Shown one piece after another: positions 25,627 to 43,497 of a DNA stretch of 64,000 nucleotides. The notes below the pieces were generated by a model that saw only the letters and a list, made by a program, of their open reading frames with translations, ran no database searches and had not been told where the DNA came from. Source of the stretch: Escherichia coli (lineage in GTDB: Bacteria; Pseudomonadota; Gammaproteobacteria; Enterobacterales; Enterobacteriaceae); assembly GCF_003790525.1 (NCBI RefSeq), contig NZ_CP033635.1; one strand, written 5' to 3'. A program made the position numbers and the translations under genes. Position 1 is the first letter of the stretch; each line of letters opens with the position of its first letter.

Positions 25627-25686
25627 TCGTCATGCTCCATAAACGACAAAACCGCCCGGAGGCGGTTTCACATAAAACATTTTGCA

Positions 25687-26358: not shown

Positions 26359-26999
26359 TTGTCGGTATACCTCTCTCGTTTGCTCAGTTGTTCAGGAATA
26401 TGGTGCAGCAGCCCGCCGTCGCCGCAGTAAATGGCGGCATGATTCGGCACCGATGAACCAAAACAGCACAGCAGCACGTCGCCGGGCTGCGCCTCTGTCA
26501 GTGCGACACGGTAAAAACCAGTCGCCTCCATATTGTCAAGATAGAGATTCTGACCGTGACGCCACCAGTCATCCCCGCGATGAAAATCCGGCATCTCAAT
26601 CCCCGCCAGATGATAAGCATCCCGGAACAGCGTGTAACAGTCCGTCACCCCGTGCTCAAAACGCCGCCCGGTGAGATGCGGCACACAGCGGAACTTGTGA
26701 ATCGTCCCCCGGCAGACCAGCCACCACGGCAAATCACTCTGCACCTGCAGCCGCCGGTCGGCCTCACTCAGCCAGGGCAGACCACCGGGGTGGCTGTGGA
26801 CCAGCGCCACAATCTCACCCTGCATTTCTGCCCGCAGCCAGTCCTCCGGAGCCATCCGGAAATACGCCTCCGGCTCACCGGAGATATTCACGCAGGGAAA
26901 ATATCTTTCCCCCTCCGGCGTTCTCACCACGAAGCCGCACGACTCCGCTGGCGCACATCGCCGGGCGTGCGCCAGAATCGCTGATTCTGTCTCTGTCAT
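26256..26999 (-). CDS. tail assembly protein K (JAB/MPN + NlpC/P60)
   Basis: MTETESAILAHARRCAPAESCGFVV...HSHPGG motif; start taken at 26999 (ORF track start 27041 is probably too far upstream); 3' end overlaps I as in lambda. Confidence 0.85.
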   Translation of the reverse strand: MTETESAILAHARRCAPAESCGFVVRTPEGERYFPCVNISGEPEAYFRMAPEDWLRAEMQGEIVALVHSHPGGLPWLSEADRRLQVQSDLPWWLVCRGTIHKFRCVPHLTGRRFEHGVTDCYTLFRDAYHLAGIEMPDFHRGDDWWRHGQNLYLDNMEATGFYRVALTEAQPGDVLLCCFGSSVPNHAAIYCGDGGLLHHIPEQLSKRERYTDKWQRRTHSLWRHRAWHASAFTGICNDLAAASTFV

Positions 27000-27003
27000 G
27001 GAA

Positions 27004-27702
27004 TTACTGCGAAAGTTTGTGAATGGAAAGGAAGCCGCCAAAGTTGCCGACGTTATTGCGAAACTTACAGCCGCTCAGGCATTTGCTGCATTTATCCTTC
27101 GTGATATCGGACGTCGGCTGATCATATTCATCCGCGACCGCCGGACCGCTATAACCGCACTCATCGCCGCGATAGGTCCAGGTGCAGGTGTTGGCCAGCA
27201 TGATACGTCCCGGAAAAACAGCGCCGTCCGTTTCCGTCGGCGTGGCCAGTACAAAGGTCGCGCTGACCGCTGTCAAATCACTGCACTGCTCGATGCGCCA
27301 GCGGCTGATAACCTCCTGCTCCGGATCGGCGTCACTGTTTCCGTTGACGAAGTTCACCGCATCCAGAAAACGGGCATAAACTTTACGCCGGACCACCGTT
27401 CCGCCGACCAGACTCTGCATATCTTCCACCATACCGGTGACCATACCGTACAGGTTAGAAACCGTCAGCGTGGGGCGCGTACTGGTGCCTTTGCCATTCA
27501 GTTCAAAACCACTCCCCTGAATGGGATACGGCTGATACTGTCGCACCTGCCAGGTGACCGGCTCACCTTTTTCGTTCTGCTCATTACAGAAAAAATAACG
27601 TTCTCCACCGACCTCTGTCAGATCGATTTCCCAGAGCACCACGCTGGCCGACTGCTCCGCACGGGTGCATTCATTCAGTGTTTCCTGCCGGATATCCTGC
27701 AT
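27004..27702 (-). CDS. minor tail protein L
   Basis: 232-aa, lambda L-like, C-terminal Cys cluster. Confidence 0.9.
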   Translation of the reverse strand: MQDIRQETLNECTRAEQSASVVLWEIDLTEVGGERYFFCNEQNEKGEPVTWQVRQYQPYPIQGSGFELNGKGTSTRPTLTVSNLYGMVTGMVEDMQSLVGGTVVRRKVYARFLDAVNFVNGNSDADPEQEVISRWRIEQCSDLTAVSATFVLATPTETDGAVFPGRIMLANTCTWTYRGDECGYSGPAVADEYDQPTSDITKDKCSKCLSGCKFRNNVGNFGGFLSIHKLSQ

Positions 27703-28031
27703 CAGTTCACCACCTGTTCAAACTCTGCGCTGAACTCAACACGCAGCATACTGACCCGCGACGACCATTTTGCGCAGGTCACCTTTATCTGCCGCCACTC
27801 ATAAGGCGGCGTCCACAGAAAGGCCTTCCAGCCCCCGTGCTCAGCCAGAAACGACTCCAGCGCCGTGGCCTCCTCACGGGAGACAGACAGCGTCACGCTG
27901 TACGTTTTCAGGTCGGCATTCAGACCGGCAGGCGCTCGCTGGGAATAGCCATCACCAAAGCGCACTTTCCTGACGGAAGGGGCCGAAGCCACATCCATAC
28001 CGGGTTTCACTTTCCAGCGGAAGGTCTTCAT
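27702..28031 (-). CDS. minor tail protein M
   Basis: 109-aa, lambda M-like. Confidence 0.9.
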   Translation of the reverse strand: MKTFRWKVKPGMDVASAPSVRKVRFGDGYSQRAPAGLNADLKTYSVTLSVSREEATALESFLAEHGGWKAFLWTPPYEWRQIKVTCAKWSSRVSMLRVEFSAEFEQVVN

Positions 28032-30589
28032 CGTCCACCTCCGGAGAACAGGCCACCATCACGCATCTGTGTCTGAATTTCATCACGGGCACCCTTGCGG
28101 GCCATGTCATACACCGCCTTCAGAGCAGCCGGACCTATCTGCCCGTTCGTGCCGTCGTTGTTAATCACCACATGGTTATTCTGCTCAAACGTCCCGGACG
28201 CCTGCGACCGGCTGTCTGCCATGCTGCCCGGTGTACCGACATAACCGCCGGTGGCATAGCCGCGCATCAGCCGGTAGAGATTCCCCACGCCAATCCGGCT
28301 GGTTGCCTCCTTCGTGAAGACAAACTCACCACGGTGAACAATCCCCGCTGGCTCATATTTGCCGCCGGTTCCTGTGAATCCTCCGGTTGAAAAATGGAAT
28401 TTCGCCGCAGCGGCCTGAATGGCTGTACCGCCTGACACTGATGCGCCACCACCGGCAGCACCGCCAATGGCGCTGCCGATACTCCCGACAATCCCCACCA
28501 TTGCCTGCTTAAGCAGAATTTCTGTCATCATGGACAGCACGGAACGGGTGAAGCTGCGCCAGTTCTGCTCACTGCCGGTCAGCATCGCCGCCATATTCTG
28601 TGCAATTCCATCAAAGGTCTGCGTGGCTGCACTTTTAACCTGCGACATACTGTCCGTGGCGCTCTCTTCCCACTCACTCCAGCCGGACTTCAGGCCAGCC
28701 ATCCAGCTCCCGCGAAGCAGGTCTTCAGCCGCCCAGGTCTTTTTCTGCTCTGACATGACGTTATTCAGCGCCAGCGGATTATCGCCATACTGTTCCTTCA
28801 GACGCTGTTCTGTGGCTTCCCGCGCTGCCTGCCGGTCAGTCAGCCCCCGGTTTTTCGCATCAATGGCGGCCCGTTTTGCCCGTTGCTGCTGTGCGAATTT
28901 CTCCGCCTGCTGCGCCAGCGCGTTCAGGCGCTCCTGATACGTAACCTTGTCGCCAAGTGCAGCCAGCTGGCGTTTGTACTCCAGCGTCTCATCTTTATGC
29001 GCCAGCAGGGATTTCTCCTGTGCAGACAGCTGGCGACGTTGTGCCGCCTCCTCCAGTACCGCGAACTGACTCTCCGCCTTCCACAAATCCCGGCGCTGCT
29101 GGCTGATTTTCTCATTCGCTCCGGCATGCTTCTCCAGCATCCGGAGTTCTGCCTGAAGCGTCAGCAGGGCCGCATGAGCACTGTCTTCCTGACGATCGCC
29201 CGCAGACACCTTCACGCCGGACTGTTTCGGCTTTTTCAGCGTCGCTTCATAATCCTTTTTCGCCGCCGCCATCAGCGTGTTGTAATCTGCCTGCAGGATT
29301 TTCCCGTCTTTCAGTGCCTTGTTCAGTTCTTCCTGACGGGCGGTATATTTCTCCAGCGGCGTCTGCAGCCGTTCGTAAGCCTTCTGCGCCTCTTCGGTAT
29401 ATTTCAGCCGTGACGCTTCGGTATCGCTCTGCTGCTGCGCATTTTTGTCCTGTTGACTCTGCTGCTCAGCCTTCTTTCGGGCGGCCTCAAGCGCAAGACG
29501 GGCCTTTTCACGATCATCCCAGTAACGCGCCCGCGCTTCATCGTTAACAAAATAATCATCCTTGCGCAGATTCCAGATGTCGTCCGCTTTCTTAAACGCA
29601 GCCTCTGCCTTAATCAGCATCTCCTGAGCGGTATCAGGACGACCAATATCCAGCACCGCATCCCACATGGATTTGAATGCCCGCGCTGTCCTGTCTGCCC
29701 AGGTCTCCAGCGTGCCCATGTTCTCTTTCAGGCGGCGGGTCTGGTCATCAAACCCTTTCGTTGCGGCCTCGTTCGCCGCCTGCAATGCCCCTGCCTCATC
29801 GCCGGAACGCTGCAACTGAGCAACATACGCAATCTGCTCCGCCGTCACGTTATGGAACTGACGTGCCATCGCTGTCAGTCCCGACGTCGGGTCTGTGGTC
29901 AGCTTCCCGAAGGCTTCAGCGACCTTGTCCACCTCCACGCCGGATGCAGAGGAGAAACGCGCCACACTCTGGCTGATGGACGCAATCTGAGCCTCACCGC
30001 TTACCCCCGCCTTAACCAGTGCACTGAGTGACTCGCTGGTCTGGTTAAACGTCAGCCCTGCCGCCTGCCCGGCTCTGGACAGGACCAGCATACGATCTGC
30101 CGTCAGTCCCGCCTGATTGCCGGAAAGGACCAGCGTTTTGTTGAAATCGGACAGGGTTGAGTTGCCCTGATACCAGGCATACGCCAGCGCACCGGTTGCC
30201 ACCGCCAGCGAGGTGGCCCCGACCATCGGCAGGGTGATCGCACCGGCAAGCCCCCTGAACATGGGGATCATCCCGCCGAAGGAGTCCTTCACCTGACCAC
30301 CCTGTTGCAGCAGGATCAGCCACGGGTTCTGCCCGCCTGCAAGCTGCGTGGCCACGTCAGTGAACTGTGCAGGCAGCATACGCATGGCGGCTTTATACTG
30401 CCCGACGGAAATCCCCGCTTTCTGTGCAGCCAGCGCCTGTCGGCTCAGCGACTGTTCAACGACTGCCGCTGTTTTTTTCGCATCACTTTCCGTACCGGAA
30501 AAATGACGCCTGACTCTGGCCATCTGCTCGTCAAATCTGGCCGCATCCAGACTTAAATCAACGACCAGATCGCCTACCGGTTCAGCCAT
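28028..30589 (-). CDS. tail tape measure protein H
   Basis: 853-aa, coiled-coil rich, same length as lambda H. Confidence 0.9.
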   Translation of the reverse strand: MAEPVGDLVVDLSLDAARFDEQMARVRRHFSGTESDAKKTAAVVEQSLSRQALAAQKAGISVGQYKAAMRMLPAQFTDVATQLAGGQNPWLILLQQGGQVKDSFGGMIPMFRGLAGAITLPMVGATSLAVATGALAYAWYQGNSTLSDFNKTLVLSGNQAGLTADRMLVLSRAGQAAGLTFNQTSESLSALVKAGVSGEAQIASISQSVARFSSASGVEVDKVAEAFGKLTTDPTSGLTAMARQFHNVTAEQIAYVAQLQRSGDEAGALQAANEAATKGFDDQTRRLKENMGTLETWADRTARAFKSMWDAVLDIGRPDTAQEMLIKAEAAFKKADDIWNLRKDDYFVNDEARARYWDDREKARLALEAARKKAEQQSQQDKNAQQQSDTEASRLKYTEEAQKAYERLQTPLEKYTARQEELNKALKDGKILQADYNTLMAAAKKDYEATLKKPKQSGVKVSAGDRQEDSAHAALLTLQAELRMLEKHAGANEKISQQRRDLWKAESQFAVLEEAAQRRQLSAQEKSLLAHKDETLEYKRQLAALGDKVTYQERLNALAQQAEKFAQQQRAKRAAIDAKNRGLTDRQAAREATEQRLKEQYGDNPLALNNVMSEQKKTWAAEDLLRGSWMAGLKSGWSEWEESATDSMSQVKSAATQTFDGIAQNMAAMLTGSEQNWRSFTRSVLSMMTEILLKQAMVGIVGSIGSAIGGAAGGGASVSGGTAIQAAAAKFHFSTGGFTGTGGKYEPAGIVHRGEFVFTKEATSRIGVGNLYRLMRGYATGGYVGTPGSMADSRSQASGTFEQNNHVVINNDGTNGQIGPAALKAVYDMARKGARDEIQTQMRDGGLFSGGGR

Positions 30590-31016
30590 ACCGGACTCCT
30601 CCTGCGATCCCTTCTGATACTGTCATCAGCATTACGTCATCCTCCGTCATGTCCGCCACATCCGGGGATGCAGGGATAACTTCATTCCCGTCCGGGCCAA
30701 AGCGGACGCCTCCGGCAAGCCCTGCCGCTTTCTGCATCAGCACATCATCTTCAGGCTCTTCGTCAGCCTCGCGCCGGTTCAGCAGACTGAAATCCAGCGG
30801 ATGCATATCCGGATCGCTGAAAAACAGGCTGAGCACGGTGTACGTCAGCCCGGAAAAGTGCATATCCAGCAGAACATCATGAAAATAATGGGTACTGTAA
30901 AAGCGGTGCCAGTCGGCATACTCCGTGGATGACATCCCGGCAAGCATGGCACGCCAGTCGGGTCGCCCCATCTCACGCGCCAGTTTCAGGGCAAAACTCA
31001 GCTCACCGTCGAACAC
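30582..31016 (-). CDS. T reading frame of the G-T tail assembly chaperone, expressed by -1 frameshift from G
   Basis: ORF in the -1 frame relative to G, beginning immediately 3' of the slippery heptamer; lambda GT-like. Confidence 0.75.
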   Translation of the reverse strand: MFDGELSFALKLAREMGRPDWRAMLAGMSSTEYADWHRFYSTHYFHDVLLDMHFSGLTYTVLSLFFSDPDMHPLDFSLLNRREADEEPEDDVLMQKAAGLAGGVRFGPDGNEVIPASPDVADMTEDDVMLMTVSEGIAGGVRYG

Positions 31017-31420
31017 TTTCCCGCAGAAACAGGCTCTGCAGGCCCGGCGTCCTCTGTCTGTTCAGGGGTATTATTCACAACAAACTCATACATACCGGAC
31101 AGCCGGTACACCACGTTTTCAGCATGAGAAATTGCCTCCGTGGGCCAGGTGGTAAGCACTTCCTGCTCAATCTGTTTAACGGCTTCATTCATGGAAGGCT
31201 GCTTTGTCTTCTGCGGATGGTTATGCCACAGGGACATCGCCACCACAAAAGCGCCGGTTTTGATAAGGTCTGCCAAAGCAACCTGTCGGTTGCTGTCGGA
31301 GTCCGCCTGTTCTGCCTGTTGTTTCATCAGAAAAAGATGCTCAATACGCTGCAGGGCTGACAGTTCAGAAAGCGTGACGGTCACGCCGTTATGTTCAAAT
31401 GATTCGGTTTTCAGGAACAT
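30998..31420 (-). CDS. tail assembly chaperone G
   Basis: 140-aa MFLKTESFEHNGVTVTLSELSALQRIEHL..., lambda G-like. Confidence 0.9.
   Translation of the reverse strand: MFLKTESFEHNGVTVTLSELSALQRIEHLFLMKQQAEQADSDSNRQVALADLIKTGAFVVAMSLWHNHPQKTKQPSMNEAVKQIEQEVLTTWPTEAISHAENVVYRLSGMYEFVVNNTPEQTEDAGPAEPVSAGKCSTVS
31016..31022 (-). promoter_or_regulatory. programmed -1 ribosomal frameshift slippery heptamer GGGAAAG (G to G-T)
   Basis: Minus strand reads GCG GGA AAG TGT in the G frame, identical to the lambda G-T slip site, 6 codons before the G stop. Confidence 0.7.
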
Positions 31421-31435
31421 CGCTGACTCTCCGGA

Positions 31436-32176
31436 TTAACTGGCGGTGACGTTGATTTCTGCAACCGCAGCAAGTTCACCATTACCGGATACGACCGGAA
31501 TGTTGACCCTGCCTGCAGCAACGCCCTTCACGGTGATGGTCATACCACTGACCGACACGGTGGCTTTTGTTTTATCCGCAGACACCGCACGGAAGCTCTT
31601 GTCAGTTGCGCCTTCCGGCTGGAATGCCACGGTCAGCGTGGTGCTCTGCCCTTTCACCACCGAGGTGCTGGCAGGCGTCACGGTCATGCCGGTTGCCGCT
31701 GTTAGCGTGCTGCGATCTTCTGCCATCGACGGACGTCCCACGTTGGTGACTTTCACCGTGCGGGTGATCACTTCCTTCGCTGTCACCGCCTTACCGATGC
31801 TGCTGACCCAGCCGCGGAACACATCGACCGTGCCGTTCGGGAAGCGGATTTTATAGGCACGGGTATCACCTTCATTAAACCACGCCAGCAGCGCCTGCTG
31901 CCCCTGCTCTCCGGGCATCCACGCCAGCGTGAAGCTGGTATCTCCGGCGGATTTCTGCCCCTGTCCGGTCGCGGCCCAGTCCGAATCTTCATCATCGAGA
32001 TAACTGTCGTCATAGGGCTCAGCGGTCAGTTCGCCGGGCGTCAGGTCTTTAACTTTAGCCAGACGCGACCAGTCATTGTCTGAAAGCGGGTTCGCATAAG
32101 GGTCACCGTTCCCCTTATAAACCCACAGGGTGGTCCCGGCCCCTTTCACCGGTGCCAGAGGATTTGGTGTTGGCAT
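31436..32176 (-). CDS. major tail protein V (with C-terminal Ig-like domain)
   Basis: [22 protein letters not shown]... lambda V-like; start taken at 32176 rather than track start 32206. Confidence 0.9.
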
Positions 32177-32183
32177 ATCGTCC

Positions 32184-32579
32184 TCACATTTCATAGGTAA
32201 TGACATAAGTCAGATCGGCTGAACTCCACAGGCCCGCATCATCGTCGCGCCGGTAGTCATAGCCACTGGCCACCATACTGGTGATCAAATCTGACAGTGC
32301 CGGGATATCGCTCATCACCGGATAAATCCGGGACTCCATCCACGAATCCAGCTCTGAATCCGGCACCTGAGCAGGCAGGAAAACTTCAATATGCAGCTCC
32401 GCCTGCCAGGTATCGCTGTCCAGCTCTTCGCCCGTGTATTCAGCGCCGGTGAGATAAACGGCAACTGCCGGAAAATCCGCCTCATCAAAAACAGCGGGGC
32501 GACCATCAAAAAGCGTCGCCCCGGTGTCATGTTTTTCCAGTGCATCCAGTACGGCTGTACGGAGTTCAGTATTTTTCAT
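32184..32579 (-). CDS. tail terminator protein U
   Basis: 131-aa, lambda U-like. Confidence 0.9.
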
Positions 32580-33151
32580 CGCTTTATCACAATCCTCAGT
32601 TGTTGTTTCAGCGCATAGCTCAGTTCTTTTGGCAGACGTTCGCGTCGGATACGGTTAACGTTCTCATCAAAAGCCTGTTTCAGTGGGGCCGACATCGGAA
32701 TTTTCACCACCTGAATGGGAAGACGATTACGCTTTTTCCTTCCCTTATCGTCATTGCCCTTCGCATACCTGGCTTCTGGCAGACGTTGCATAACATGCCA
32801 GCGCCCATTATTCAGTCGCTGGATGAATGCCCGCTGATAACGATGCTGACCGGCTTTGAGTATGCTGTTCGGGCGATGACCAAGCATCCTGATCCCCAGC
32901 TTAATAGCAGGGAGATCACCTCGGTTAACGATAATTTTTGCATTCGGATTTCTGACCGTAGCCCGTTTCAGTCTGGATCGCTGTTTAACCAGTTTTCTCG
33001 GCACCCGGGTTTCACGGGCGACCTGAGACGAAGACTGATTAATCGCCGTTGTGGCCACGCGGTTAATGGCCATTGCTGACGCACCGGGCACCGCCGTTCT
33101 GCTGATACGACTGAGGTTTTCAACGGCCTGCTCAAGACCCTGTATGGCCAT
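32576..33151 (-). CDS. tail completion protein Z
   Basis: 191-aa, lambda Z-like. Confidence 0.9.
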   Translation of the reverse strand: MAIQGLEQAVENLSRISRTAVPGASAMAINRVATTAINQSSSQVARETRVPRKLVKQRSRLKRATVRNPNAKIIVNRGDLPAIKLGIRMLGHRPNSILKAGQHRYQRAFIQRLNNGRWHVMQRLPEARYAKGNDDKGRKKRNRLPIQVVKIPMSAPLKQAFDENVNRIRRERLPKELSYALKQQLRIVIKR

Positions 33152-33162
33152 ACATCCCCCTT

Positions 33163-33525
33163 TCAGCGACGACGGTTAACGGCAGGCGGCACGCCACGCC
33201 CAAGCCAGAGATGACAGCTTCCGCCATCATCCGGCGAAACCCGGTCTATCCAGAAGTTTTCCTCACCGATGGTCAGCGTGTCTCCACGCCGCAGTTGCCG
33301 CACATCATCAGTCCGGACAAACAGGGACGGGCTGGAGCCTTCAACGCGCACGCCCTGTCCGGCATAGCTGATATTTTCAGGGTCATCAAAAACACCACGT
33401 ATTACTGCGCCGGGCTGCTCACCGGATGTAATGGTGGCTGACGTTCCCATATGCCCGCGTATCGTTTCATCAGCCCGGGCAATGGCTGTATCAAAACCGT
33501 TATCCCTGATATTAATAACTTTCAT
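33163..33525 (-). CDS. head-tail joining protein FII
   Basis: ...DTAIARADETIRGHMGTSATITSGEQ... lambda FII-like; start probably at 33525. Confidence 0.85.
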   Translation of the reverse strand: MKVINIRDNGFDTAIARADETIRGHMGTSATITSGEQPGAVIRGVFDDPENISYAGQGVRVEGSSPSLFVRTDDVRQLRRGDTLTIGEENFWIDRVSPDDGGSCHLWLGRGVPPAVNRRR

Positions 33526-33874
33526 CTGTAACAAGCCCCTCCAGGACAAGTTCCGCAACATTCACTGGATCAACTCTGACAGTCATACCTGTAACAACAA
33601 TCTCCATATCACTGTCATCATGCGGATGTTTTCCCGCCACATGCAGGGTTTTGAGTACACGAACAGTGCTCATTTCATCCCCGCCAGTGGAGTAGCTATA
33701 CGTCATCAAATGCCTTTCGTTCTCATCACTCTCCTGGTTTTTGTCCTCTGCTTCCTCTTCCCATTCCGCCACCCGCTGCGCTATCTCTGCGGCACTCCCG
33801 GATATATCCGGCTCACGCCCCAGAATCCGGGCCAGTTCATCAAGCCGTTTCAGATTTTGCTCTTTCGTTGCCAT
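33512..33874 (-). CDS. DNA packaging protein FI-like (by position)
   Basis: Acidic ~120-aa protein between E and FII; weak sequence similarity to lambda FI; assignment by synteny. Confidence 0.55.
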   Translation of the reverse strand: MATKEQNLKRLDELARILGREPDISGSAAEIAQRVAEWEEEAEDKNQESDENERHLMTYSYSTGGDEMSTVRVLKTLHVAGKHPHDDSDMEIVVTGMTVRVDPVNVAELVLEGLVTDESY

Positions 33875-33925
33875 ATCAGGCCTCTGTGAAAAAAGACACG
33901 GGGGCATTTCGCCCCCGCTCACGGA

Positions 33926-34954
33926 TTATTTCACCTGTACCACCACAAACTCATCCGGGTCCGGCAACACCATCAGCGGCGCGGACTGCGTCATGGTAAA
34001 TTCACGGGCGGGATCCCCCACCGTCAGCCAGTGTTTCGGATAACGGGAAGAGGCCACCACGCCTTCAGACAACGCCTGTGCATCCTGAATGGCACCGTAA
34101 CAACGGATCCCATCTGCAGCAGTATTCCCCAGGACCAGCGTGCCGTCTGGCAGATAACGTTTTTCGGTACCGTCCTCTGCCACATAAGACGTTTTCGCCA
34201 CCACAATGGCCAGATCACCGTAATACCCTTTGAAAGACACCACCGCCCCCAGGTCTTTCACTGCCGTTTCGAGTTGCGAATTTGAACCGCGACGGGTATC
34301 CAGTTTTTCGCGGAACAGCTTAAAACCATTCAGCAGACGCCAGACGCTACCGTCCATGATGGCAATATTCACAAGGCCGCTGGCCTGGTCGCAGTAGAGG
34401 TCAATATCATGCGCAGGATCGAACGTGTCACGATCGTGCTCAGACCATTTTTTACCACTGGCCTGCGTAATGTTATTCGCCGGCGATCTGCCAAAATCGA
34501 CCTCAATTTTCTCGAACTGGTCTCCTTCCATGGTGTATTTGCCATACAGCACGGCATTTACCGCCTGCATTTCTTCCACCTGGACAATCGCGTACTCTTC
34601 CTGTTTGAGGTTATCGGTAATGATACGCAGACGGCGGTAAGCCGGATCGTTCAGTTGAGCCGGATCTTCACCAGGAAGGCGCTCAACCGCCTGCCGGGAA
34701 TTAAATTCGTGTTTCGGCTTGACGTAGCCCGGACGCAACACGCGGGTTTCACCACCACGATGACGCAGCACTTTTCCTTCAACAACCGGGGAGACATAGG
34801 CCGCCACCGGCGTTTTTCCGGTAATTTTGTCCAGCATCACCTCTTCGGTATGGAAATTCACCGTACGACGGAAAAACAGCTCCAGAAACAGCGCACGAAA
34901 TTTCACTTTTTGTTCGGTATAACCGAGTAACTGGCGGGTCGTAAACAATCCCAT
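33926..34954 (-). CDS. major capsid protein E
   Basis: 342-aa, lambda E-like (...EEMQAVNAVLYGKYTM...DPAREFTMTQSAPLMVLPDPDEFV). Confidence 0.9.
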   Translation of the reverse strand: MGLFTTRQLLGYTEQKVKFRALFLELFFRRTVNFHTEEVMLDKITGKTPVAAYVSPVVEGKVLRHRGGETRVLRPGYVKPKHEFNSRQAVERLPGEDPAQLNDPAYRRLRIITDNLKQEEYAIVQVEEMQAVNAVLYGKYTMEGDQFEKIEVDFGRSPANNITQASGKKWSEHDRDTFDPAHDIDLYCDQASGLVNIAIMDGSVWRLLNGFKLFREKLDTRRGSNSQLETAVKDLGAVVSFKGYYGDLAIVVAKTSYVAEDGTEKRYLPDGTLVLGNTAADGIRCYGAIQDAQALSEGVVASSRYPKHWLTVGDPAREFTMTQSAPLMVLPDPDEFVVVQVK

Positions 34955-35011
34955 AAATCAGTTCCTTTCATTCTGAAATCAGTCAGGCCACCGCGGTGGC
35001 CTGATAACGTG

Positions 35012-35359
35012 TTACGGCAGCGCCGCGTGACTCAGGACACTGCCGGCAAAGGCGTTGGCCTTTTTGTGTTCATCCACACTGTCAGGCCAGCGGATTGCCT
35101 CCGTCGCAAAAGTCCCCGACTTGTAATACGTCAGCACCGTCTCTGTGCCTTCAAGCGGCAGTACCAGTATGCCAACCGCACCTCCGGCTTTCTGTCCGTC
35201 CCAGACCACCAGTTTCCCGGTGGCTTCATCCAGCATCAGGGGCGTCAGTGCCGGTGTTGCCGAGGAAATCCCGCTGCTGCCTGTGGCGGTGTGAGCCGGA
35301 TCATTACCGGCAAAAATACGTACTTCCGCACGCTGTTCAGTGATGGTTTTCGTTACCAT
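35012..35359 (-). CDS. head decoration protein D
   Basis: 115-aa with NDPAHTATGSSG...FYKSGTF...AFAG, lambda D-like. Confidence 0.9.
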   Translation of the reverse strand: MVTKTITEQRAEVRIFAGNDPAHTATGSSGISSATPALTPLMLDEATGKLVVWDGQKAGGAVGILVLPLEGTETVLTYYKSGTFATEAIRWPDSVDEHKKANAFAGSVLSHAALP

Positions 35360-35395
35360 ATTGTCAAAACCTCATATTGATGGTCAGCACTGACT

Positions 35396-36901
35396 TCATG
35401 GCATGGCCATGAGCATTTTCACGTCCGCATCACCGTCTGCTGACGTCTGTGGCACGCCACCCTGTACCGCTGCCGGTGAATGGTTCGCCATGAAATGTTC
35501 AAACATGGCGGTTGTGGATGCAGAGACCGGTTCTGCCTTACCTGATCCCGCAGCCAGCACAGCCCGGGCGTTCTCCACGGTCATTCCCGGGCAGGCAGCC
35601 AGCTGTTCAGCCTGCGCCTCAGCCCCTTTTGCCTCATCCAGGGCCATGATCTGATCACGGAGTGATGGTCCGGCATCCGCCTGCGGTGAAGCTGCCAGGA
35701 TCGGGCGGGCTTTTTCCACCGTCATCTCCGGCATCGCCGCCAGCGTTGCCGCCAGTTGTTCACGACCTTTCGCCTCTTCACACGCCATAATGCGATCGGC
35801 TTCACTCTGCGCGGATGCCACCGGCTGCTGTGGTGCCGCCGCGGCCAGGATCTCCCGGGCCTGTTCAACGCTCATGCCCTGTTGTCCCGCCAGCATCGTG
35901 GCAAGCTGTTCACGTCCTTTCGCTTCCTTACTCGTCAGGATCCCCATCACTCGCTGGTTCTCCTGCGCGGCGGCTTCCGTTGCAGTTAATTGCGGCATAG
36001 TGCCTCCTGTATCATGTGTGTACAGCGCCGTGGTCATCACACTGATGGCATCCGACGCATTGACTAATTCATCCGCCAGCCCGGCCTCAATGCCGGACTG
36101 ACCTTCAAAAACGGCGGCCTCTGTTCCCGTGACCACATCCACAGACAGCCCGGTATACATCGCCACTTTTTCGGCAAACATCCGGTGTGCCGCATCAATG
36201 CGCTGCTGCATGTCCTGACGCACCTCTTCCGGTAAGGCTTCAAACTGATTGCCATCCACCTTGTGCGCCCCGGCATAAATCAGCGTGATATCCACACCGG
36301 CCTGCGCCAGATGACCGGCATAGCTGAGATGGCTCATCATCACGCCAATGGAGCCGATACGGGATGTCTGGGTAACCAGCCGTCGGGAGCAGGCCGACGC
36401 CAGCAGCATGGCTGCAGAACAGGCCGTGTCATTGCACAGTGCCCAGACCGGCTTCTGCTGACGGAGGCGGTAAATCATGTCAGCACAGTCAAACGCGCCT
36501 GCGGCCTGCCCGCCCGGACTGTCAATGTCCAGCAGTACGCCCCGGACAGCGGTGTCCGCCATTGCCTGCTGAAGACAGGCGACAATGCCGTCATAGCCTG
36601 TCATTCCGGAAAATGGCCGCATACCACCCAGCCGGTGCACCAGCATGCCGGTCACCGGCAGTACAGCAATACCGTTCACCACCCGGTAAACACGGGCCGG
36701 TCGTTTACCTCCGGCCATGTACTCGTCCGTTTCAGCCAGCATTCCGGGAGCATCAAGCTGTACCTGCTGTTGTGGTACCGAAAGACTTGCTGCCCCCATC
36801 TCGCGCCCGAGCGCGCAAAAGAAAACCCGCGCATAGGCGGGCTCCAGAAGCAGCGGTTCATTGAATGCTGCGGCAATAATGTGTGAAAGATTACGTCTCA
36901 C
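35396..36901 (-). CDS. head maturation protease C (S49 family) with nested scaffold (Nu3-like) region containing three 33-aa repeats
   Basis: 501-aa; ClpP/S49-like N-terminal part; repeats EAKGREQLA...VE.AR.ILAA x3. Confidence 0.85.
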   Translation of the reverse strand: MRRNLSHIIAAAFNEPLLLEPAYARVFFCALGREMGAASLSVPQQQVQLDAPGMLAETDEYMAGGKRPARVYRVVNGIAVLPVTGMLVHRLGGMRPFSGMTGYDGIVACLQQAMADTAVRGVLLDIDSPGGQAAGAFDCADMIYRLRQQKPVWALCNDTACSAAMLLASACSRRLVTQTSRIGSIGVMMSHLSYAGHLAQAGVDITLIYAGAHKVDGNQFEALPEEVRQDMQQRIDAAHRMFAEKVAMYTGLSVDVVTGTEAAVFEGQSGIEAGLADELVNASDAISVMTTALYTHDTGGTMPQLTATEAAAQENQRVMGILTSKEAKGREQLATMLAGQQGMSVEQAREILAAAAPQQPVASAQSEADRIMACEEAKGREQLAATLAAMPEMTVEKARPILAASPQADAGPSLRDQIMALDEAKGAEAQAEQLAACPGMTVENARAVLAAGSGKAEPVSASTTAMFEHFMANHSPAAVQGGVPQTSADGDADVKMLMAMP

Positions 36902-38483
36902 GTGGTGTTGTCTCCTCTTCCGGCCTGCGACTCGCCGCTATCTGCTGCTGATACGCCTGCGCTATCCACACCGGACGTGAGAGTCCGGCTTTTTCCCGCT
37001 CTGCAGATTCCCTGACCTGCTGGCGGAAAATGTCCTGATAATCCTCACCCATCAGCGCCAGCTCTTTCTCATACGTGCTCAGTCCGGCCTCAATGCGCAT
37101 CACCGATTCCTGGACCTCCTTGAGCCCGTCAATGGCCATTCTTCCGGCTCCAATCCACTCTGCCCGTGACCAGGATGAACGCGCCTGATAAAAATCAAAA
37201 CGCGCCCGTGGCGGACGAATAATCCCCCGCAGAAGAGCCTCTTCCAGCCAGCAGGAAAACATCTGCGTGGCCAGCCGGGCCGCAATAAATTTTCGCCGCC
37301 CCATAAAATAGCGCCACGACTCATTGGCGGAGGCGCGGGCACTTGAATAACTGACCTTCGAGTAATCACGGGACAACTGTTCGTAGGAAACGCCAAGACC
37401 GGCGGCGATATACCGCAGCAGCGCCTGTTCAAGCGCAGAAAATCCATTGTCTGAATCCTGCGCAGTCTGTAGTTTCAGATCATCACCGGGGAAAAGGTGC
37501 GGAATTTTGACACCGCCCAGTGTCACGTTATTCGTGTCATACCAGCTGGAGAACTTCTCCAGAATATTAATAAGCGGATTATCCTTCTGCCCCTGCGGCG
37601 CACCGGCGATATATTCAAAGGCCTTTTCGGTATCAAGTTCACTTTCAATCGTCGCTGCATACATCGCCTTCACTATGGCTGACTGAAGCTGTGTTGCCTG
37701 CAGGGAATCGAGCATTTTCAGCCGTTCCATGACGCTGTAAAACTGATTAGCCCCACGGGTCTGCCCGTCCTCAACCGGCTCGAAAATATGCAGCATGGCC
37801 GGACGCCCGGTGGGAAGTTCACGCGGGATCCGTTCCCATCGTCCACTACCAGAGAGCGGAAAATCATCCTCACAGATATGGTACGCAACGGCCCGTCCAT
37901 GCCGATCGACCTCCACCCCGGCCCGCAGAAAGCGGTTCCCCAAACCGTATCCTGGCGTGTCCACCCGTTTCGGACTCACGGCTTTAAAACGCGTACGAAA
38001 CAGCTGCGTAGTCTCCGCATCCCAGACCGGCTGCACAAAGATTTCGCCGTTAAACGCATGAACGCCCACGCCTTCCCGGATAAATTCCGTGAACGTGCGT
38101 TTTCCTTCCACGTCGATCTCGCCAGACATCCCTTCGGCGTATTCCGACCAGGCCGCCTCCACCTCATCGACAAAGCTTTTTGCTGCGGTCTCCCGCATCC
38201 CCAGCCAGCGCCAGTTCGGACGGTAGCTGATCAGAAACATATGCCCGACTATGTGATCCTTATGCAGGGCCACCGCATTAGCCGCTATTCCGTTATTGCG
38301 CACCAGATCATCTGCCCGGGCATTCCCCAGACGCAACGCGGGGAGCAGGGCCGCATCGACACTCTGCGCCGGTGGCAACCACTCCGCCATTTGCCCGCCA
38401 AATCCTGCGCCGCCCCCGTTGTAGCTGAGACTCTCACGAAGCGGAACGCCGTTCACATCAATCAGGACAGGCGTTCTTTTCAT
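36891..38483 (-). CDS. portal protein B
   Basis: 530-aa, lambda B-like. Confidence 0.9.
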   Translation of the reverse strand: MKRTPVLIDVNGVPLRESLSYNGGGAGFGGQMAEWLPPAQSVDAALLPALRLGNARADDLVRNNGIAANAVALHKDHIVGHMFLISYRPNWRWLGMRETAAKSFVDEVEAAWSEYAEGMSGEIDVEGKRTFTEFIREGVGVHAFNGEIFVQPVWDAETTQLFRTRFKAVSPKRVDTPGYGLGNRFLRAGVEVDRHGRAVAYHICEDDFPLSGSGRWERIPRELPTGRPAMLHIFEPVEDGQTRGANQFYSVMERLKMLDSLQATQLQSAIVKAMYAATIESELDTEKAFEYIAGAPQGQKDNPLINILEKFSSWYDTNNVTLGGVKIPHLFPGDDLKLQTAQDSDNGFSALEQALLRYIAAGLGVSYEQLSRDYSKVSYSSARASANESWRYFMGRRKFIAARLATQMFSCWLEEALLRGIIRPPRARFDFYQARSSWSRAEWIGAGRMAIDGLKEVQESVMRIEAGLSTYEKELALMGEDYQDIFRQQVRESAEREKAGLSRPVWIAQAYQQQIAASRRPEEETTPRET

Positions 38484-38686
38484 AACCTCACTCCCAGCGG
38501 ACGACGGCGACGTCGGGTTGTCCCCAGTACCGACTCCGCATCATTGATCGCCCGGTTAAGCTCATCCAGAGAAGCCGCCGTATATTCAATTCTGCGACCA
38601 TCTTTCTGGACAGACACCACCCGTTTACCGGTTAATAAATCAAGGCGCGCCTGACGCAGCGCCTGCAGTTCAGCGACTGTAACCAT
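38480..38686 (-). CDS. head-tail connector protein W
   Basis: 68-aa ...LTGKRVVSVQKDGRRIEYTA..., lambda W-like. Confidence 0.85.
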   Translation of the reverse strand: MVTVAELQALRQARLDLLTGKRVVSVQKDGRRIEYTAASLDELNRAINDAESVLGTTRRRRRPLGVRL

Positions 38687-40598
38687 TCACTCCTCCGGAC
38701 AGCTTCGCTGCCAGTTCTTTAAGGGTTGGCCGGGTCGTCTCTTCTTCCCGGGATTTTGCCAGTACAGCCAGATCAAGCTGCCAGCGTTGCACGGACACAC
38801 GTAATGCCGCGTAGGCATACACCAGGCAGTCCAGCGCTTCGTTACGCCGCTTTTTGTTATCCCACAGCAGACGCATCTTTCCTTTTTCCCACTTCTCCAC
38901 AAGCTCTTCCGCGACCAGTTGCTGCGCCTCTGTCTGCGAAAAAATCTCCGGATCATCAGGAAAACGAATGGCATACGACGTGGATTCATCCGCAGGCGTG
39001 GGAGCGGCTTTCATACGGGCATAGAGAATTTCTTTTGCGGTGTCCGTGCCCACTTCACACAGATACACGCCCCGCTGATTGCGGGTTTTTGGCATGGTGA
39101 TCACCGGCTTGCCATAGACAGATGCGCCTTTTACCGGCAACACCCGGAAAACACCGTGTTTTTTTGACCTCTGATAAACGATTTCTCCATCGATCCCCCC
39201 GATGTCCCAGCAGACACGGGAAATGGTCATTTCGGTTCCGTCTGCATGGCGGTATTTTTTGTTGATCGCCGCATCCACACGTAACAGCGTCTCTTCCTCA
39301 TCGGGACGTCCCATAATGATGATTTTATCCACCAGAAAGGCTTCCTCTCCCGGAGCCCATCCCCAGACATACATCTCAAAACGGTTTCGCTGCGAGTCAA
39401 TGCCCGCCGTCAGATAAACCACCCGGGCAGGCACCGCCGCCGTGTAACGCACAACCTTATCCATCAGTACCTGGTGATCGAGTTTTTCGCCCACGGCCTC
39501 TTCCCAGGTCTCGCCCAGCGTGGTGTTCACAAAGGTTTTCAGGCCGTTGGGATCTTTCAGTGCATCCAGCCAGTCATAGACAATCTGTACCCAGGTGGTG
39601 AACGGACTGTACGCCGTCCAGATATGGAAAGTGATGGAGCGCGGCGGCGGAATTTCATTATCCGCGGCGCTGAAAAACATCAGGCCGTCACGGGTCCACA
39701 TGCCCGTGTTTTCACAGATCCACCGCCCGTTACTCTGGTCAAGCTCAGACTGATGGATCACACAGCCATGATGCTCACAAAGGTAGAAAACGCTTTCGGG
39801 GCTGTCCTTCTCCCATTTAAGGCCAAAAGGCGTGGATTCATCGCCAAATTTCAGATACTGCTCCTCCCCACAGTGCGGGCAGGGCACATAAAAACGCATG
39901 AAATGTGCCGACTCGTTAGCGGCTTTTTCGATCTGGCAGGAGCCTTTGATTTTAGGCGTCGAGCCGCGAATGGATTTTGGCCATACAGAGCCCTCAATAC
40001 GCTTATCCCCCAGCAGGGTTGGCGAGCCCTCTTTTTCAACATCCGGTTCGAACGAGGAAAGCTCGTCATAGCAGACCACGTCCACGGATTTTTCACGGTA
40101 GTTTTTTGCTGCCGCACCACCCAGGCACCAGAAGCCCACACCCGATGAAAAGCGTTTCAGCGTGAGAGTATTGTCACGATGTTTACGCCCCAGCCATGGA
40201 GAAAGGTCTTTCAGGCATGGCACATCCCGAATCGTCGCCTCCACGTGAGACTTCATAAAATCTTCAGCGGCAGAATCCGTGGGCTGAAAAAGCAGACTGT
40301 TTCGGGATTTATGCTCAATAAAATACCCGACCACCCCCAGCAACATCTTTGTATAACCAATACGGGCAGATTTAATCAGGTTAACAGTGCGAATCAGATC
40401 GTTGCCCATACAGTTCATGATGGCGATCTGGAACGGCAGCGTTTTCCATTCTCCCTCACCATATGAAGATTCTTTAGGCAGATAATAATTTTGATCAGCC
40501 CATTCAACTGGCGTCACCGGCAATGCCCTTATCAGGGGCTGTAATGCTGTTGTGACAGCACTCATCATATTATTCAGTTGTTGCTCTGATATATTCAT
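38670..40598 (-). CDS. terminase large subunit A
   Basis: MNISEQQLNNMM...; Walker and nuclease motifs, lambda A-like; start taken at 40598. Confidence 0.9.
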   Translation of the reverse strand: MNISEQQLNNMMSAVTTALQPLIRALPVTPVEWADQNYYLPKESSYGEGEWKTLPFQIAIMNCMGNDLIRTVNLIKSARIGYTKMLLGVVGYFIEHKSRNSLLFQPTDSAAEDFMKSHVEATIRDVPCLKDLSPWLGRKHRDNTLTLKRFSSGVGFWCLGGAAAKNYREKSVDVVCYDELSSFEPDVEKEGSPTLLGDKRIEGSVWPKSIRGSTPKIKGSCQIEKAANESAHFMRFYVPCPHCGEEQYLKFGDESTPFGLKWEKDSPESVFYLCEHHGCVIHQSELDQSNGRWICENTGMWTRDGLMFFSAADNEIPPPRSITFHIWTAYSPFTTWVQIVYDWLDALKDPNGLKTFVNTTLGETWEEAVGEKLDHQVLMDKVVRYTAAVPARVVYLTAGIDSQRNRFEMYVWGWAPGEEAFLVDKIIIMGRPDEEETLLRVDAAINKKYRHADGTEMTISRVCWDIGGIDGEIVYQRSKKHGVFRVLPVKGASVYGKPVITMPKTRNQRGVYLCEVGTDTAKEILYARMKAAPTPADESTSYAIRFPDDPEIFSQTEAQQLVAEELVEKWEKGKMRLLWDNKKRRNEALDCLVYAYAALRVSVQRWQLDLAVLAKSREEETTRPTLKELAAKLSGGVNGYSR

Positions 40599-41079
40599 CG
40601 AGTAAATCCGGTAATTTATCCCCTGCCCGCGCACACTGATTTGCCCCCTTCGCAATAAGGGTTTTCAGATGGTCAAGATGGCGCGGTGTTAAATCAGGAA
40701 ACTGTCGTTGCATGGATAAAGGGATGGAATCAAGCGTACTGGATAACGCCATTGCCAGCTTGCTGAGGGCAAAAATACAGAACCCGGTGTCAATAAGTTT
40801 TCCTTTTGACACCTCATTTTTTAACTGCTGTGTAACAGCCTGTTCTGCTGTCAGTTCCCATCTGGCAATAAGCAATTTCTCCTCATAGTCGTCTTCGCTA
40901 TCGCCATCAGGCACATCGTTTTTACTTCTTCTCAGATACGATATGTAAAAATCACGCCAGGCATCCAGATCCAGTTGCCCTCGCTTATTCGATATCGGGG
41001 CACCCGGCAATTTCTGCAGTCTGCGAAGCTGGCGATCGGTCAGACTCAAATGCCTGGCAACTTCAGTCTGCGTAGCCAC
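40570..41079 (-). CDS. terminase small subunit Nu1
   Basis: 169-aa; C-terminal half resembles lambda Nu1 (...LSMQRQFPDLTPRHLDHLK...LLDEYI...). Confidence 0.8.
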   Translation of the reverse strand: MATQTEVARHLSLTDRQLRRLQKLPGAPISNKRGQLDLDAWRDFYISYLRRSKNDVPDGDSEDDYEEKLLIARWELTAEQAVTQQLKNEVSKGKLIDTGFCIFALSKLAMALSSTLDSIPLSMQRQFPDLTPRHLDHLKTLIAKGANQCARAGDKLPDLLDEYIRATTE

Positions 41080-41291
41080 TGTTCACCTCGCAAAAAATCT
41101 CCCCTCATGCGTTTTAAACATGCATCTTGCGAGCAACTTTATGCAAACGCACGCATATGTCCGGTTTGTTTGTACATTTTTTGCACATGTCCGGTTCGCA
41201 GAAAGCATGTTTTTATATTTTTCATATAGTTAACTTGCAGAGAAACCGGACATGGATCCCGGAAAATTTTCATAAATAGCGAAAACGCGCG

Positions 41292-41303
41292 AGGTCGACG
41301 CCC
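41292..41303. other. cos site (cosN cohesive-end sequence)
   Basis: ccggaaaattttcataaatagcgaaaacgcgcgaggtcgacgcccc is the reverse complement of the lambda left-end sequence with few mismatches; the 12-nt cohesive end maps to 41292-41303. Confidence 0.7.
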
Positions 41304-41502
41304 CGTAACGGGTCCACATGCCGGAAAGGACCCGCAAAATGATAATAATTATCATCTACATGTCACAACGTGCATCTACGCCATCAAACCACGTCAAATA
41401 ATAAATTATGACGCAGGTATCGTATTAATTGATCTGCATCAACTTAACGTAAAAACAACTTCAGACAATACAAATCAGCGACACTGAATACGGGGCAACC
41501 TC

Positions 41503-41697
41503 ATGTCAACGAAGAACAGAACCCGCAGAACAACAACCCGCAACATCCGCTTTCCTAACCAAATGATTGAACAAATTAACATCGCTCTTGAGCAAAAAGG
41601 GTCCGGGAATTTCTCAGCCTGGGTCATTGAAGCCTGCCGTCGGAGACTAACGTCAGAAAAGAGAGCATATACATCAATCCAAAGAGATGATGAATAA
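41503..41697 (+). CDS. YlcI-like small protein (DUF3950-type) next to cos
   Basis: 64-aa MSTKNRTRRTTTRNIRFPNQMIEQINIALEQKG...; same position as ylcI next to the Nu1 homologue in DLP12. Confidence 0.5.
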   Translation: MSTKNRTRRTTTRNIRFPNQMIEQINIALEQKGSGNFSAWVIEACRRRLTSEKRAYTSIQRDDE

Positions 41698-42057
41698 ACA
41701 TCCCGGTTTCTTCCACCATCGCACCGGAAAAGCGACTATGAGGGTAACCCTGCGTCTGTCAGCACAGTAAAACCCGGTGTGCATCGTTTTTGATTATTCC
41801 CGCACACTCGCGCAGAGGAGTTCCCCGTCGGGCTACGGTCATGGTTAATGCGGGAATACGGCGACGATGCAGCGCAGCTAAAAGGGTAATGGACGGATAG
41901 ACCGGTTTATTTCATTCTACAGGATTCTGAGTGTCCCCAACTCCCTCCAATCGTCTGAGCGCCACCTGTGTAGTTTTAATTTTCATCAATCCATTTAACT
42001 ATCGTTTAATTGTTGTCACATAGGATTCTGCCGTTTTTAACAATGCAGGATAATAAG

Positions 42058-42351
42058 ATGAAAAAAATGTTGTTTTCTGCCGCTCTGGCAATGCTTATTA
42101 CAGGATGTGCTCAACAGACGTTTACTGTTGGAAACAAACCTACAGCCGTAACACCAAAGGAAACCATCACCCATCATTTCTTCGTTTCGGGAATTGGGCA
42201 GAAGAAAACTGTCGATGCAGCAAAAATTTGTGGTGGTGCAGAAAATGTGGTTAAAACAGAAACCCAGCAAACATTCGTAAATGGATTGCTCGGTTTCATC
42301 ACTTTTGGCATTTATACTCCGCTGGAAGCGCGGGTGTATTGCTCAAAATAA
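42058..42351 (+). CDS. bor: Bor lipoprotein (serum resistance)
   Basis: MKKMLFSAALAMLITGCAQQT... lipobox; lambda Bor-like; preceded by AGGA. Confidence 0.85.
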   Translation: MKKMLFSAALAMLITGCAQQTFTVGNKPTAVTPKETITHHFFVSGIGQKKTVDAAKICGGAENVVKTETQQTFVNGLLGFITFGIYTPLEARVYCSK

Positions 42352-42382
42352 TTGCATGAGTTGCCCATTGATATGGGCAGCT

Positions 42383-42859
42383 CTATCTGCACTGCTCATT
42401 AATATACTTCTGGGTTCCTTCCAGTTGCTTCTGCATCGTCATCAACCGTTCTCTGAGGGTGAAATAATCCCGTTCAGCGGTGTCTGCCAGTCGGGGGCTG
42501 GTTGCATTATCCACGCCGGAGGCGGTGGTGGCTTCACGCACTGACTGACAGACTGCTTTGATGTGCAACCGACGACGACCTGCGGCAACATCATCACGCA
42601 GAACATCATTTTCAGCTTTCGCATCAGCTAACTCCTTCGTGTATTTTGCATCGAGCGCAGCAACATCACGCTGACGCTGCTGCATGTCAGCGATGGTGGC
42701 GATCGCCTGCTTCAGCTCACTGACTTTTTTATCGCGCTGCTCTTTGTAAGTGATGGCGTTATCGCGGTAATGATTGACCGCCCACGACAGGCAGACGATG
42801 ATGCAGATAACCAGAGCATAAATAATCGCGGCGACTCTGCTCACTGATCTATTCCCCAA
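42383..42859 (-). CDS. i-spanin Rz
   Basis: 158-aa, N-terminal TM plus coiled coil, lambda Rz-like. Confidence 0.85.
42442..42624 (-). CDS. o-spanin Rz1, embedded in Rz in the +1 frame
   Basis: 60-aa lipoprotein [23 protein letters not shown] with proline-rich PPPPPAW. Confidence 0.75.
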
Positions 42860-43374
42860 CAGGCTAATGCGCTTTCCTGGTCACGACGAATAACCTGTCC
42901 GTAGCAGTTATTTGAACGTGTGCGGCAATCACGCCCACCGTCCTTAATCCACCAGCGAATCGACTCACAGGCACCTTTACGATCACCGGCATTAAGCCGC
43001 TTATAAAACGTCGACGGGAAACACTTACCGGGGCCAATGTTATAGGGACAGAATGACGCTATACCCGCTTTCTGTGGTTCGGTCAGTGGTACTTTAATAT
43101 TGCGCTCCACCCATGCCAGCGCCTTATCACGCTCAATGGCATTAACCTGAGCGCATTTTTCCTTCGACAGCTTCATTCCCGGTATGACGGGCTTACCATC
43201 CACCATTGTGGCACCACGACAGATGGTCCATATACCGGAACCATCGCGGTATGCCGTTGTGTGGTTACCTTCTTTTTCATCCAGAAACTGGTCGAGAATA
43301 TCAGGCGCAGGCGCACCGACGGCAATCAGTGCCAGAACGGCAGCCGACAGGCCGTATCTGATTTTTGCGTTCAT
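42841..43374 (-). CDS. SAR endolysin (phage lysozyme)
   Basis: 177-aa; N-terminal hydrophobic SAR-like segment; E...D...T catalytic spacing ([22 protein letters not shown]). Confidence 0.85.
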
Positions 43375-43497
43375 GTATATTTATCAGGATCTAAAGGTTT
43401 ATAACCCTGGATATATCAGGTATATAATCCAGTACCAGCATGTCTCATAAACATACCCGTTCAGGAAAACCAAACGACAACAGATGAGGCTTCAGAA

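Follow-up and report, generated by a model that had tools for sequence, protein, structure and literature searches.

A 64,000-nucleotide stretch of an Escherichia coli genome (RefSeq assembly GCF_003790525.1, contig NZ_CP033635.1; the whole stretch is called the window below) carries a prophage gene whose 501 amino acid product contains three tandem copies of a module that is present once in the corresponding protein of phage lambda. We consider it very probable (roughly 0.85) that this gene is the phage 21 version of lambda C/Nu3, with two products, a head maturation protease and a scaffolding protein, and with a modular scaffold that was triplicated in its lineage; for the module itself we infer a docking role. 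In the open reading frame (ORF) list, where its start codon is GTG, the gene is placed as follows:

35396..36901, minus strand: head maturation protease/scaffold fusion gene (phage 21 gene 5 type; lambda C analogue), stop codon included

Three Tandem Units in the Scaffold Region

An earlier note on this DNA had pointed to three repeats of 33 amino acids in the C-terminal third of the protein, and these repeats are real. When the three units are aligned locally in pairs, the BLOSUM62 scores are 95, 78, and 102, whereas composition-preserving shuffles give a mean of approximately 25, a standard deviation of 5, and a maximum of 50 (observed z = 10.7-15.5). A repeat search at the DNA level returns one three-copy direct family of 97 nucleotides, at 35550-35646, 35691-35787, and 35841-35937, with spacings of 141 and 150 nucleotides and identities of 65-70%. 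Tandem Repeats Finder reports no repeat in 35300-36200, which we attribute to the age of the copies and their excessive divergence.

The repeat length has to be revised. The EAKG motif occurs at amino acids 326, 376, and 423, giving periods of 50 and 47 amino acids; the full tandem units are thus 47-50 amino acids long, and a length near 33 describes the conserved core alone (approximately 33-38 amino acids in each unit). The interval given at first, 35570-35920, is essentially right but slightly narrow, as the units extend over 35522-35962 and the “Tri boxes” annotated in phage 21 (see below) over 35537-35931. Aligned and in order, the units read ENQRVMGILTSKEAKGREQLATMLAGQQGMSVEQAREILAAAAPQQPVAS; AQSEADRIMACEEAKGREQLAATLAAMPEMTVEKARPILAASPQADA; GPSLRDQIMALDEAKGAEAQAEQLAACPGMTVENARAVLAAGSGKAEPVS. 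The consensus of the module, I..(x)EAKGRE.LA..LA..PGMTVE.AK.ILAAAP, is matched three times in the protein by a hidden Markov model (HMM) of the unit (79-83 bits):

35813..35962, minus strand: repeat unit 1, amino acids 314-363, holding the Tri1 box (35828-35931, amino acids 324-358); HMM domain 314-362, 82.5 bits
35672..35812, minus strand: repeat unit 2, amino acids 364-410, holding the Tri (Tri2) box (35681-35791, amino acids 371-407); HMM domain 365-409, 80.8 bits
35522..35671, minus strand: repeat unit 3, amino acids 411-460, holding the Tri3 box (35537-35650, amino acids 418-455); HMM domain 412-458, 79.1 bits

The description of the protein as C/Nu3-like also holds. PHROG 53 (“head maturation protease”) matches it over its full length (amino acids 1-501, E = 2.5e-223), and the sole Pfam match is a peptidase S49 domain in the N-terminal two-thirds, while the repeats lie in the Nu3-like scaffold part. 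Ser162 and Lys214 are invariant across an alignment of five phages and probably form the catalytic pair of the S49 protease. The identification of the gene as a lambda C/Nu3-type S49 protease-scaffold fusion in an E. coli lambdoid prophage is thereby supported.

36029..36466, minus strand: peptidase S49 domain, amino acids 146-291 (Pfam PF01343, E = 6.3e-36, 124 bits, cut-off 24.9)

Correspondence with the Phage 21 Tri Boxes

When the last 200 residues were compared with phage records by tblastn, Escherichia phage 21 (M81255.1, OL657228.1) was found at 96%. The window gene and gene 5 of phage 21 align without gaps and are 96.5% identical in nucleotides and 95.2% in amino acids. The record M81255 (“Bacteriophage 21 head gene operon”) annotates gene 5 (501 amino acids) and a nested gene 6 (200 amino acids, with its own ribosome-binding site), together with three repeat_region features, the “Tri1 box,” the “Tri box,” and the “Tri3 box,” all carrying the note “function unknown; putative.” In the complete genome, OL657228.1, the two products are called “capsid protease/scaffolding protein” and “scaffolding protein.” The three repeats of the window are colinear with the Tri1, Tri, and Tri3 regions in the gap-free alignment, and the feature was therefore already on record; at the level of sequence, the alignment confirms that the repeats are the known Tri boxes of phage 21. 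The Tri boxes are not discussed in the literature that we searched, which did not include the original description of the phage 21 sequence.

Phage 21 resembles the window in having a 501 amino acid protein and a nested 200 amino acid protein, the same internal start, ribosome-binding site, repeats, and neighboring genes. The two proteins differ by 24 amino acid substitutions, seven of them in the repeat region, and the window copy resides in an E. coli prophage whereas the phage 21 copy comes from an isolated phage.

The Nested Scaffold Gene

The nested ORF of the window coincides exactly with the gene 6 (“scaffolding protein”) coding sequence of phage 21, including the internal ATG. A Shine-Dalgarno sequence precedes this ATG and overlaps the “putative” ribosome_binding_site of gene 6 in M81255 and OL657228, which corresponds to window positions 36005-36009. 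Met302 and Gly299 are invariant in the five-phage alignment, and lambda C has an identical AGGAGG-N4-ATG layout at codon 309. The internal start at codon 302 would thus yield a separate, putative scaffolding protein.

36003..36008, minus strand: AGGAGG Shine-Dalgarno sequence, 4 nucleotides 5' of the internal in-frame ATG (read from the sequence)
35396..35998, minus strand: nested in-frame ORF of the 200 amino acid scaffolding protein (phage 21 gene 6; lambda Nu3 analogue), Met302 to stop (exact map to the annotated coding sequence)

The same comparison bears on lambda itself. In PV340536 (approximately 2200-2415), Nu3 in its GenBank-style form (201 amino acids) would begin at codon 239 of C, where the ATG has no Shine-Dalgarno sequence upstream (gcagtcccggATG). 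The AGGAGG-N4-ATG at codon 309 aligns with the start of phage 21 gene 6 and with Met302 of the window (35996-36008) and would give a Nu3 of 131 amino acids. PHROGs has a profile of 201 positions (phrog_8940) as well as one of 131 (phrog_8399). It looks as if the 131 amino acid product, rather than the 201 amino acid one, is the real Nu3 of lambda.

Copy Number among Relatives

The repeats had also been proposed to be an expansion relative to lambda that may influence how the procapsid is assembled, to be checked by alignment with lambda C/Nu3 and other prohead proteases. In the five-phage alignment lambda C has a single unit, as do HK225 and Vibrio phage HY01, while the window protein and phage D2 have three; the unit HMM agrees. 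The repeats are therefore not universal in the protease family. Three units are also found in the homologue from Gifsy-1, and one unit in the Casjensviridae members Proteus ASh-2020a, Xylella Salvo, and, by a weak match, Rhodobacter RcMaeve. No unit is detectable in the FelixO1-like Sf17.

We then searched a profile built from 19 units against 1.84 billion cluster representatives, which returned 1311 proteins at E ≤ 0.001. Among the best 150 of these 1311 representatives, 137 have a single copy; the same is true of 60 of the 62 S49-bearing proteins in this set. The 200 amino acid query is covered to at least 80% by 20 records of the phage collection; these represent the three-copy type, with the exception of CP025907, whose match is fragmented. 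Nearly all of the remaining 99 phage records, including every one among the matches listed, align to one module's worth. The homologues found with the 200 amino acid region are mostly gene fragments and are informative for copy-number variants alone. They include two-copy variants, of which P0022 is an exact in-register fusion of repeats 1 and 2 while P0017 and P0018 are other two-copy deletions, and a four-copy variant, the E. coli protein P0033. A two-copy protein of a separate lineage, P0203, has a PPTPPTPP(TPP) linker. The extra copies are a real, lineage-specific expansion relative to lambda, found in phage 21, Gifsy-1, and E. coli prophages, and in a few lineages the module has multiplied independently.

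The units also retain a record of their order. In the comparison of units, repeat 1 falls together with the single unit of lambda, that of HK225, and the first unit of every multi-copy protein; by this clustering it is the orthologue of lambda's single unit, and the extra units would therefore have arisen 3' (downstream) of the ancestral one. The nearest unit to repeat 2 is unit 2 of the Salmonella homologue (68%), and repeat 3 shows a weaker correspondence to unit 3 of the same protein (61%). Units 2-4 of P0033 are 82-89% identical to one another, which points to a recent expansion in that protein. Across the 19 units, the positions occupied by Ala, Gly, Glu, Ala, Leu, and Ala are invariant or nearly so. 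Relative to phage 21, the ratio of nonsynonymous to synonymous substitution rates (dN/dS) is 0.25 for the modules and 0.27 for the protease, a rough estimate with just 16 nucleotide differences in the modules. Repeats 2 and 3 appear from these comparisons to be old and under purifying selection.

Predicted Structure

The AlphaFold model of the 200 amino acid product (21 homologues) contains three separate helical modules with a predicted local distance difference test (pLDDT) score of approximately 80. The linkers, which are rich in Ala, Pro, and Gln, have pLDDT values below 65, most of the tail is of low confidence, and the predicted template modeling score (pTM) is 0.28. The modules are thus predicted to be beads on a string, i.e., independent three-helix mini-domains joined by flexible linkers. 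A single module modeled alone gives three helices with a pLDDT of 86.7 and a pTM of 0.65. Its parts are a short helix (“RIMGIL”), a turn (“EAKGRE”), a helix (“LAxxLA”), a loop (“xPGMT”), and a helix (“VExAKxILAAAP”).

The last module ends 41-43 amino acids before the C-terminus (the family range is 35-60), leaving the following tail:

35399..35521, minus strand: C-terminal tail, amino acids 461-501, with one predicted helix (TTAMFEHFMANH; AlphaFold helix at residues 160-172 of the 200 amino acid model, low pLDDT beyond it), then an acidic stretch ending MLMAMP

The tail helix resembles the first helix of the module (TAMFEHFMA in the window, NAFDAFMQ in Gifsy-1, ALDRLMQG in lambda), and a hydrophobic tip follows the acidic stretch (MLMAMP in the window, LLMSIP in Gifsy-1, DLLNTPV in lambda). 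The scaffold array has the look of n modules followed by an additional first helix and then a tail.

Searches of structure and family databases gave no counterpart of the module. Pfam and NCBIfam contain no model for the scaffold region and return sub-threshold noise only (HHH_5, HTH_29, and others). No significant match was found in PDB sequence searches with the 200 amino acid region, the unit profile, or a single unit, nor by Foldseek for the 200 amino acid model against the PDB (E ≤ 0.001), and the module matches the scaffolding proteins of the PDB neither in sequence nor in fold. A 24 amino acid PDB chain, 9hqv_Un (“AKGREALAE”), was considered as a scaffold peptide and rejected as a chance match, 9HQV being a Toxoplasma mitoribosome. 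Stacked, armadillo-like repeats were also rejected: the in-phase similarity to designed armadillo proteins is insignificant (E = 0.46), and continuous packing into a solenoid is ruled against by the low-pLDDT linkers, the pTM of 0.28, and the presence of one module in most relatives. Nor does the module correspond to a coat-binding helix-turn-helix of the P22 type, a two-helix hairpin at the extreme C-terminus: it consists of three helices and is separated from the C-terminus by more than 40 amino acids. We count small three-helix-bundle interaction domains, such as those of staphylococcal protein A (affibody), UBA/CUE, and RuvA domain III, among the closest systems.

Possible Role of the Module

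In the mechanism that we propose, one reading frame would give two products, the 501 amino acid S49 protease with its scaffold part and, from codon 302, a 200 amino acid scaffold (gp6, the Nu3 analogue). Their common C-terminus would allow a few protease molecules to be co-assembled with many scaffold molecules inside the procapsid. Modules of approximately 45 amino acids on linkers predicted to be flexible, followed by a tail of approximately 40 amino acids, make up the scaffold region. In the phage 21/Gifsy-1 lineage, tandem duplication of the module downstream of the ancestral copy would have brought the number to three, and unequal in-register recombination between copies may still give rise to the two- and four-copy variants. 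Each module might act as a protein-protein docking unit, for the gpE-type capsid protein, for other scaffold chains, or for the portal, and three of them would make a longer, multivalent scaffold with the size of the capsid unchanged. Genome sizes overlap between three-copy phages (42.9-54.4 kb) and one-copy phages (44.6-52.4 kb), and the capsid proteins are of equal length; a change in capsid size by copy number is therefore unlikely.

By analogy, we infer that the module is a protein-docking unit of Nu3-type scaffolds. The analogy would be to the lambda paradigm, with gpNu3 as the scaffold, gpC as the protease, and a C-terminus in common. Interactions of lambda Nu3 with E, of Nu3 with itself, and of C with Nu3 have been reported, including yeast two-hybrid data (PMC3224144). 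A more specific version, in which the module docks Nu3-type scaffolds on gpE-type capsomers (or the portal) and copy number tunes how many subunits are bridged per chain, is put forward tentatively, at odds well short of even.

Several observations weigh against a docking role or against parts of the proposal. The dN/dS estimate for the modules is based on 16 nucleotide differences only, and the use of the internal start rests on sequence and on GenBank annotations marked “putative.” Versions with one, two, three, and four copies all look viable, which suggests that the exact number is not critical. The scaffolds of P22, P2, 80alpha, and herpesviruses usually bind the capsid protein at the extreme C-terminus, which would favor the tail over the modules as the binding site.

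The main rival to module docking takes up this last point. The modules would be self-association or length-setting elements, and the capsid-binding site would be the C-terminal tail, with its helix and its acidic ...LLMxMP end; we regard this as a realistic possibility, somewhat below an even chance. Nearly all of the 62 relatives with an S49 domain have a tail of 35-60 amino acids beyond their last module, a helix like the first module helix recurs in the tails of the window protein, Gifsy-1, and lambda, and the two-hybrid data for lambda (PMC3224144) contain Nu3-Nu3 interactions besides those of Nu3 with E. However, the module is the best-conserved part of the scaffold across distant phages, with 47 amino acid matches to E = 1e-19 (1.8 billion proteins), whereas the tails do not align across distant phages; a conserved module beside unalignable tails is the pattern expected of a partner-binding element. 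It is less probable, and in our judgment unlikely, that the extra modules are neutral spacer, i.e., that an Ala-rich linker region grew by slippage or unequal recombination and that copy number has no consequence for assembly. Such an origin would fit the range of one to four copies among close relatives, the low-complexity, low-pLDDT linkers, and a copy number that genome size does not track. Yet every copy retains the family residues (A, G, E, A, L, and A, which do not vary among 19 units). The corresponding units of Salmonella phages that are just 56% identical overall match repeat 2 and, less clearly, repeat 3, the module dN/dS of 0.25 is like that of the protease domain, and each copy is predicted to fold alone (pLDDT approximately 80).

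Two further explanations concern the nature of the signal itself. The repeats might act as DNA or RNA, for example as cis sites, and OL657228 indeed annotates two “CII binding sites” (TTGYN6TTGY) on the opposite strand inside gene 6, both of which are present in the window (35746-35759 and 35980-35993, plus strand). However, the window holds 11 matches to the pattern where chance alone predicts 15 ± 3.7, and both sites are therefore probably meaningless. The DNA copies are only 65-70% identical (hence perhaps beyond the reach of Tandem Repeats Finder) while the protein pattern is conserved, and the module is kept as protein in phages with unrelated DNA; we give action at the DNA or RNA level very little credence. 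The similarity might finally be a compositional artefact of a low-complexity region rich in Ala, Gln, and Glu. The region is Ala-rich and yields weak, spurious matches to unrelated helical proteins at E of approximately 0.05-1, but shuffles never exceed 50 against the observed 78-102, the units line up in register at a constant period, and the unit profile finds its 1311 proteins at E ≤ 0.001. On these grounds we consider an artefact refuted.

The repeats carry low weight as a discovery, given the Tri boxes in M81255 and a gene type that is very common in E. coli. Their value is descriptive: the repeat, which is usually single and occurs in 1311 representative clusters, forms the conserved core of lambda-type scaffolding proteins and has neither a family model nor a solved structure. 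The one-copy/three-copy contrast can be used in studies of lambda-type procapsid assembly, and current understanding is not overturned. If copy number does set docking valency, lambda (one copy) and phage 21 (three copies) would form a ready-made test of scaffold valency in T=7 assembly.

Related Systems and Genomic Context

Lambda gpC/gpNu3 shares with the window the fusion of an S49 protease to a scaffold, the nested in-frame scaffold gene with AGGAGG-N4-ATG, and the gene order B-C-D-E. Identity between its one module and repeat 1 is 58%; over the whole alignment, lambda C and the window protein are also 58% identical, and tblastn gives 51% for amino acids 3-408. Lambda differs in its module count (one against three), in an additional low-complexity stretch of approximately 45 amino acids that links protease and module, and in a tail unlike that of the window; the major capsid proteins are 61% identical and of equal length. 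The gpC homologue of the Salmonella prophage Gifsy-1 (STM2605, 498 amino acids) has three modules at the same positions as the window protein. Its capsid protein is 86% identical to that of the window, whereas the scaffold region is just 56% identical. In herpesvirus UL26/UL26.5 and phage P2 gpO, protease and scaffold also share a C-terminus, which carries the protease into the procapsid, but the sequences and protease families are unrelated to the window gene. To our knowledge, neither system has tandem module repeats.

The ORF list places the following genes next to or near the protease/scaffold gene:

36891-38483: portal gene, adjoining the protease/scaffold gene
35012-35359: decoration protein gene, adjoining the protease/scaffold gene
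33926-34954: major capsid protein (gpE-type) gene, near the protease/scaffold gene

The RefSeq annotation of a near-identical prophage agrees on the portal, decoration, and capsid neighbors, and the order portal-protease-decoration-capsid is common to the window, lambda, D2, HK225, HY01, Casjensviridae members, and Gifsy-1. The protease gene is found at a coverage of at least 80%, nearly always with at least 90% identity, in 1865 of 5426 complete E. coli genomes. A phage 21-type gene in about one third of the complete genomes is ordinary and very common.

Some signs of exchange were seen around the gene. Across portal, C, D, and E, phage D2 (OM475427) and the window share approximately 96% identity. 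The exception, a patch of approximately 500 bp (approximately 1300-1800), is 99-100% identical to lambda and comprises the portal 3' end together with the first 100 or so protease codons. Judged by these identities, the patch is a small mosaic exchange that moved the portal 3' end and the protease 5' end together. The protease gene of the window is 100% identical to that of E. coli EC332 (NZ_AP039429), while the surrounding prophage (approximately 23400-43400) is just 94-97% identical, which indicates that the prophage is a mosaic. In the EC332 prophage the serum-survival gene iss adjoins the lysis genes; by coordinate transfer alone, its equivalent in the window would lie at approximately 42050-42350.
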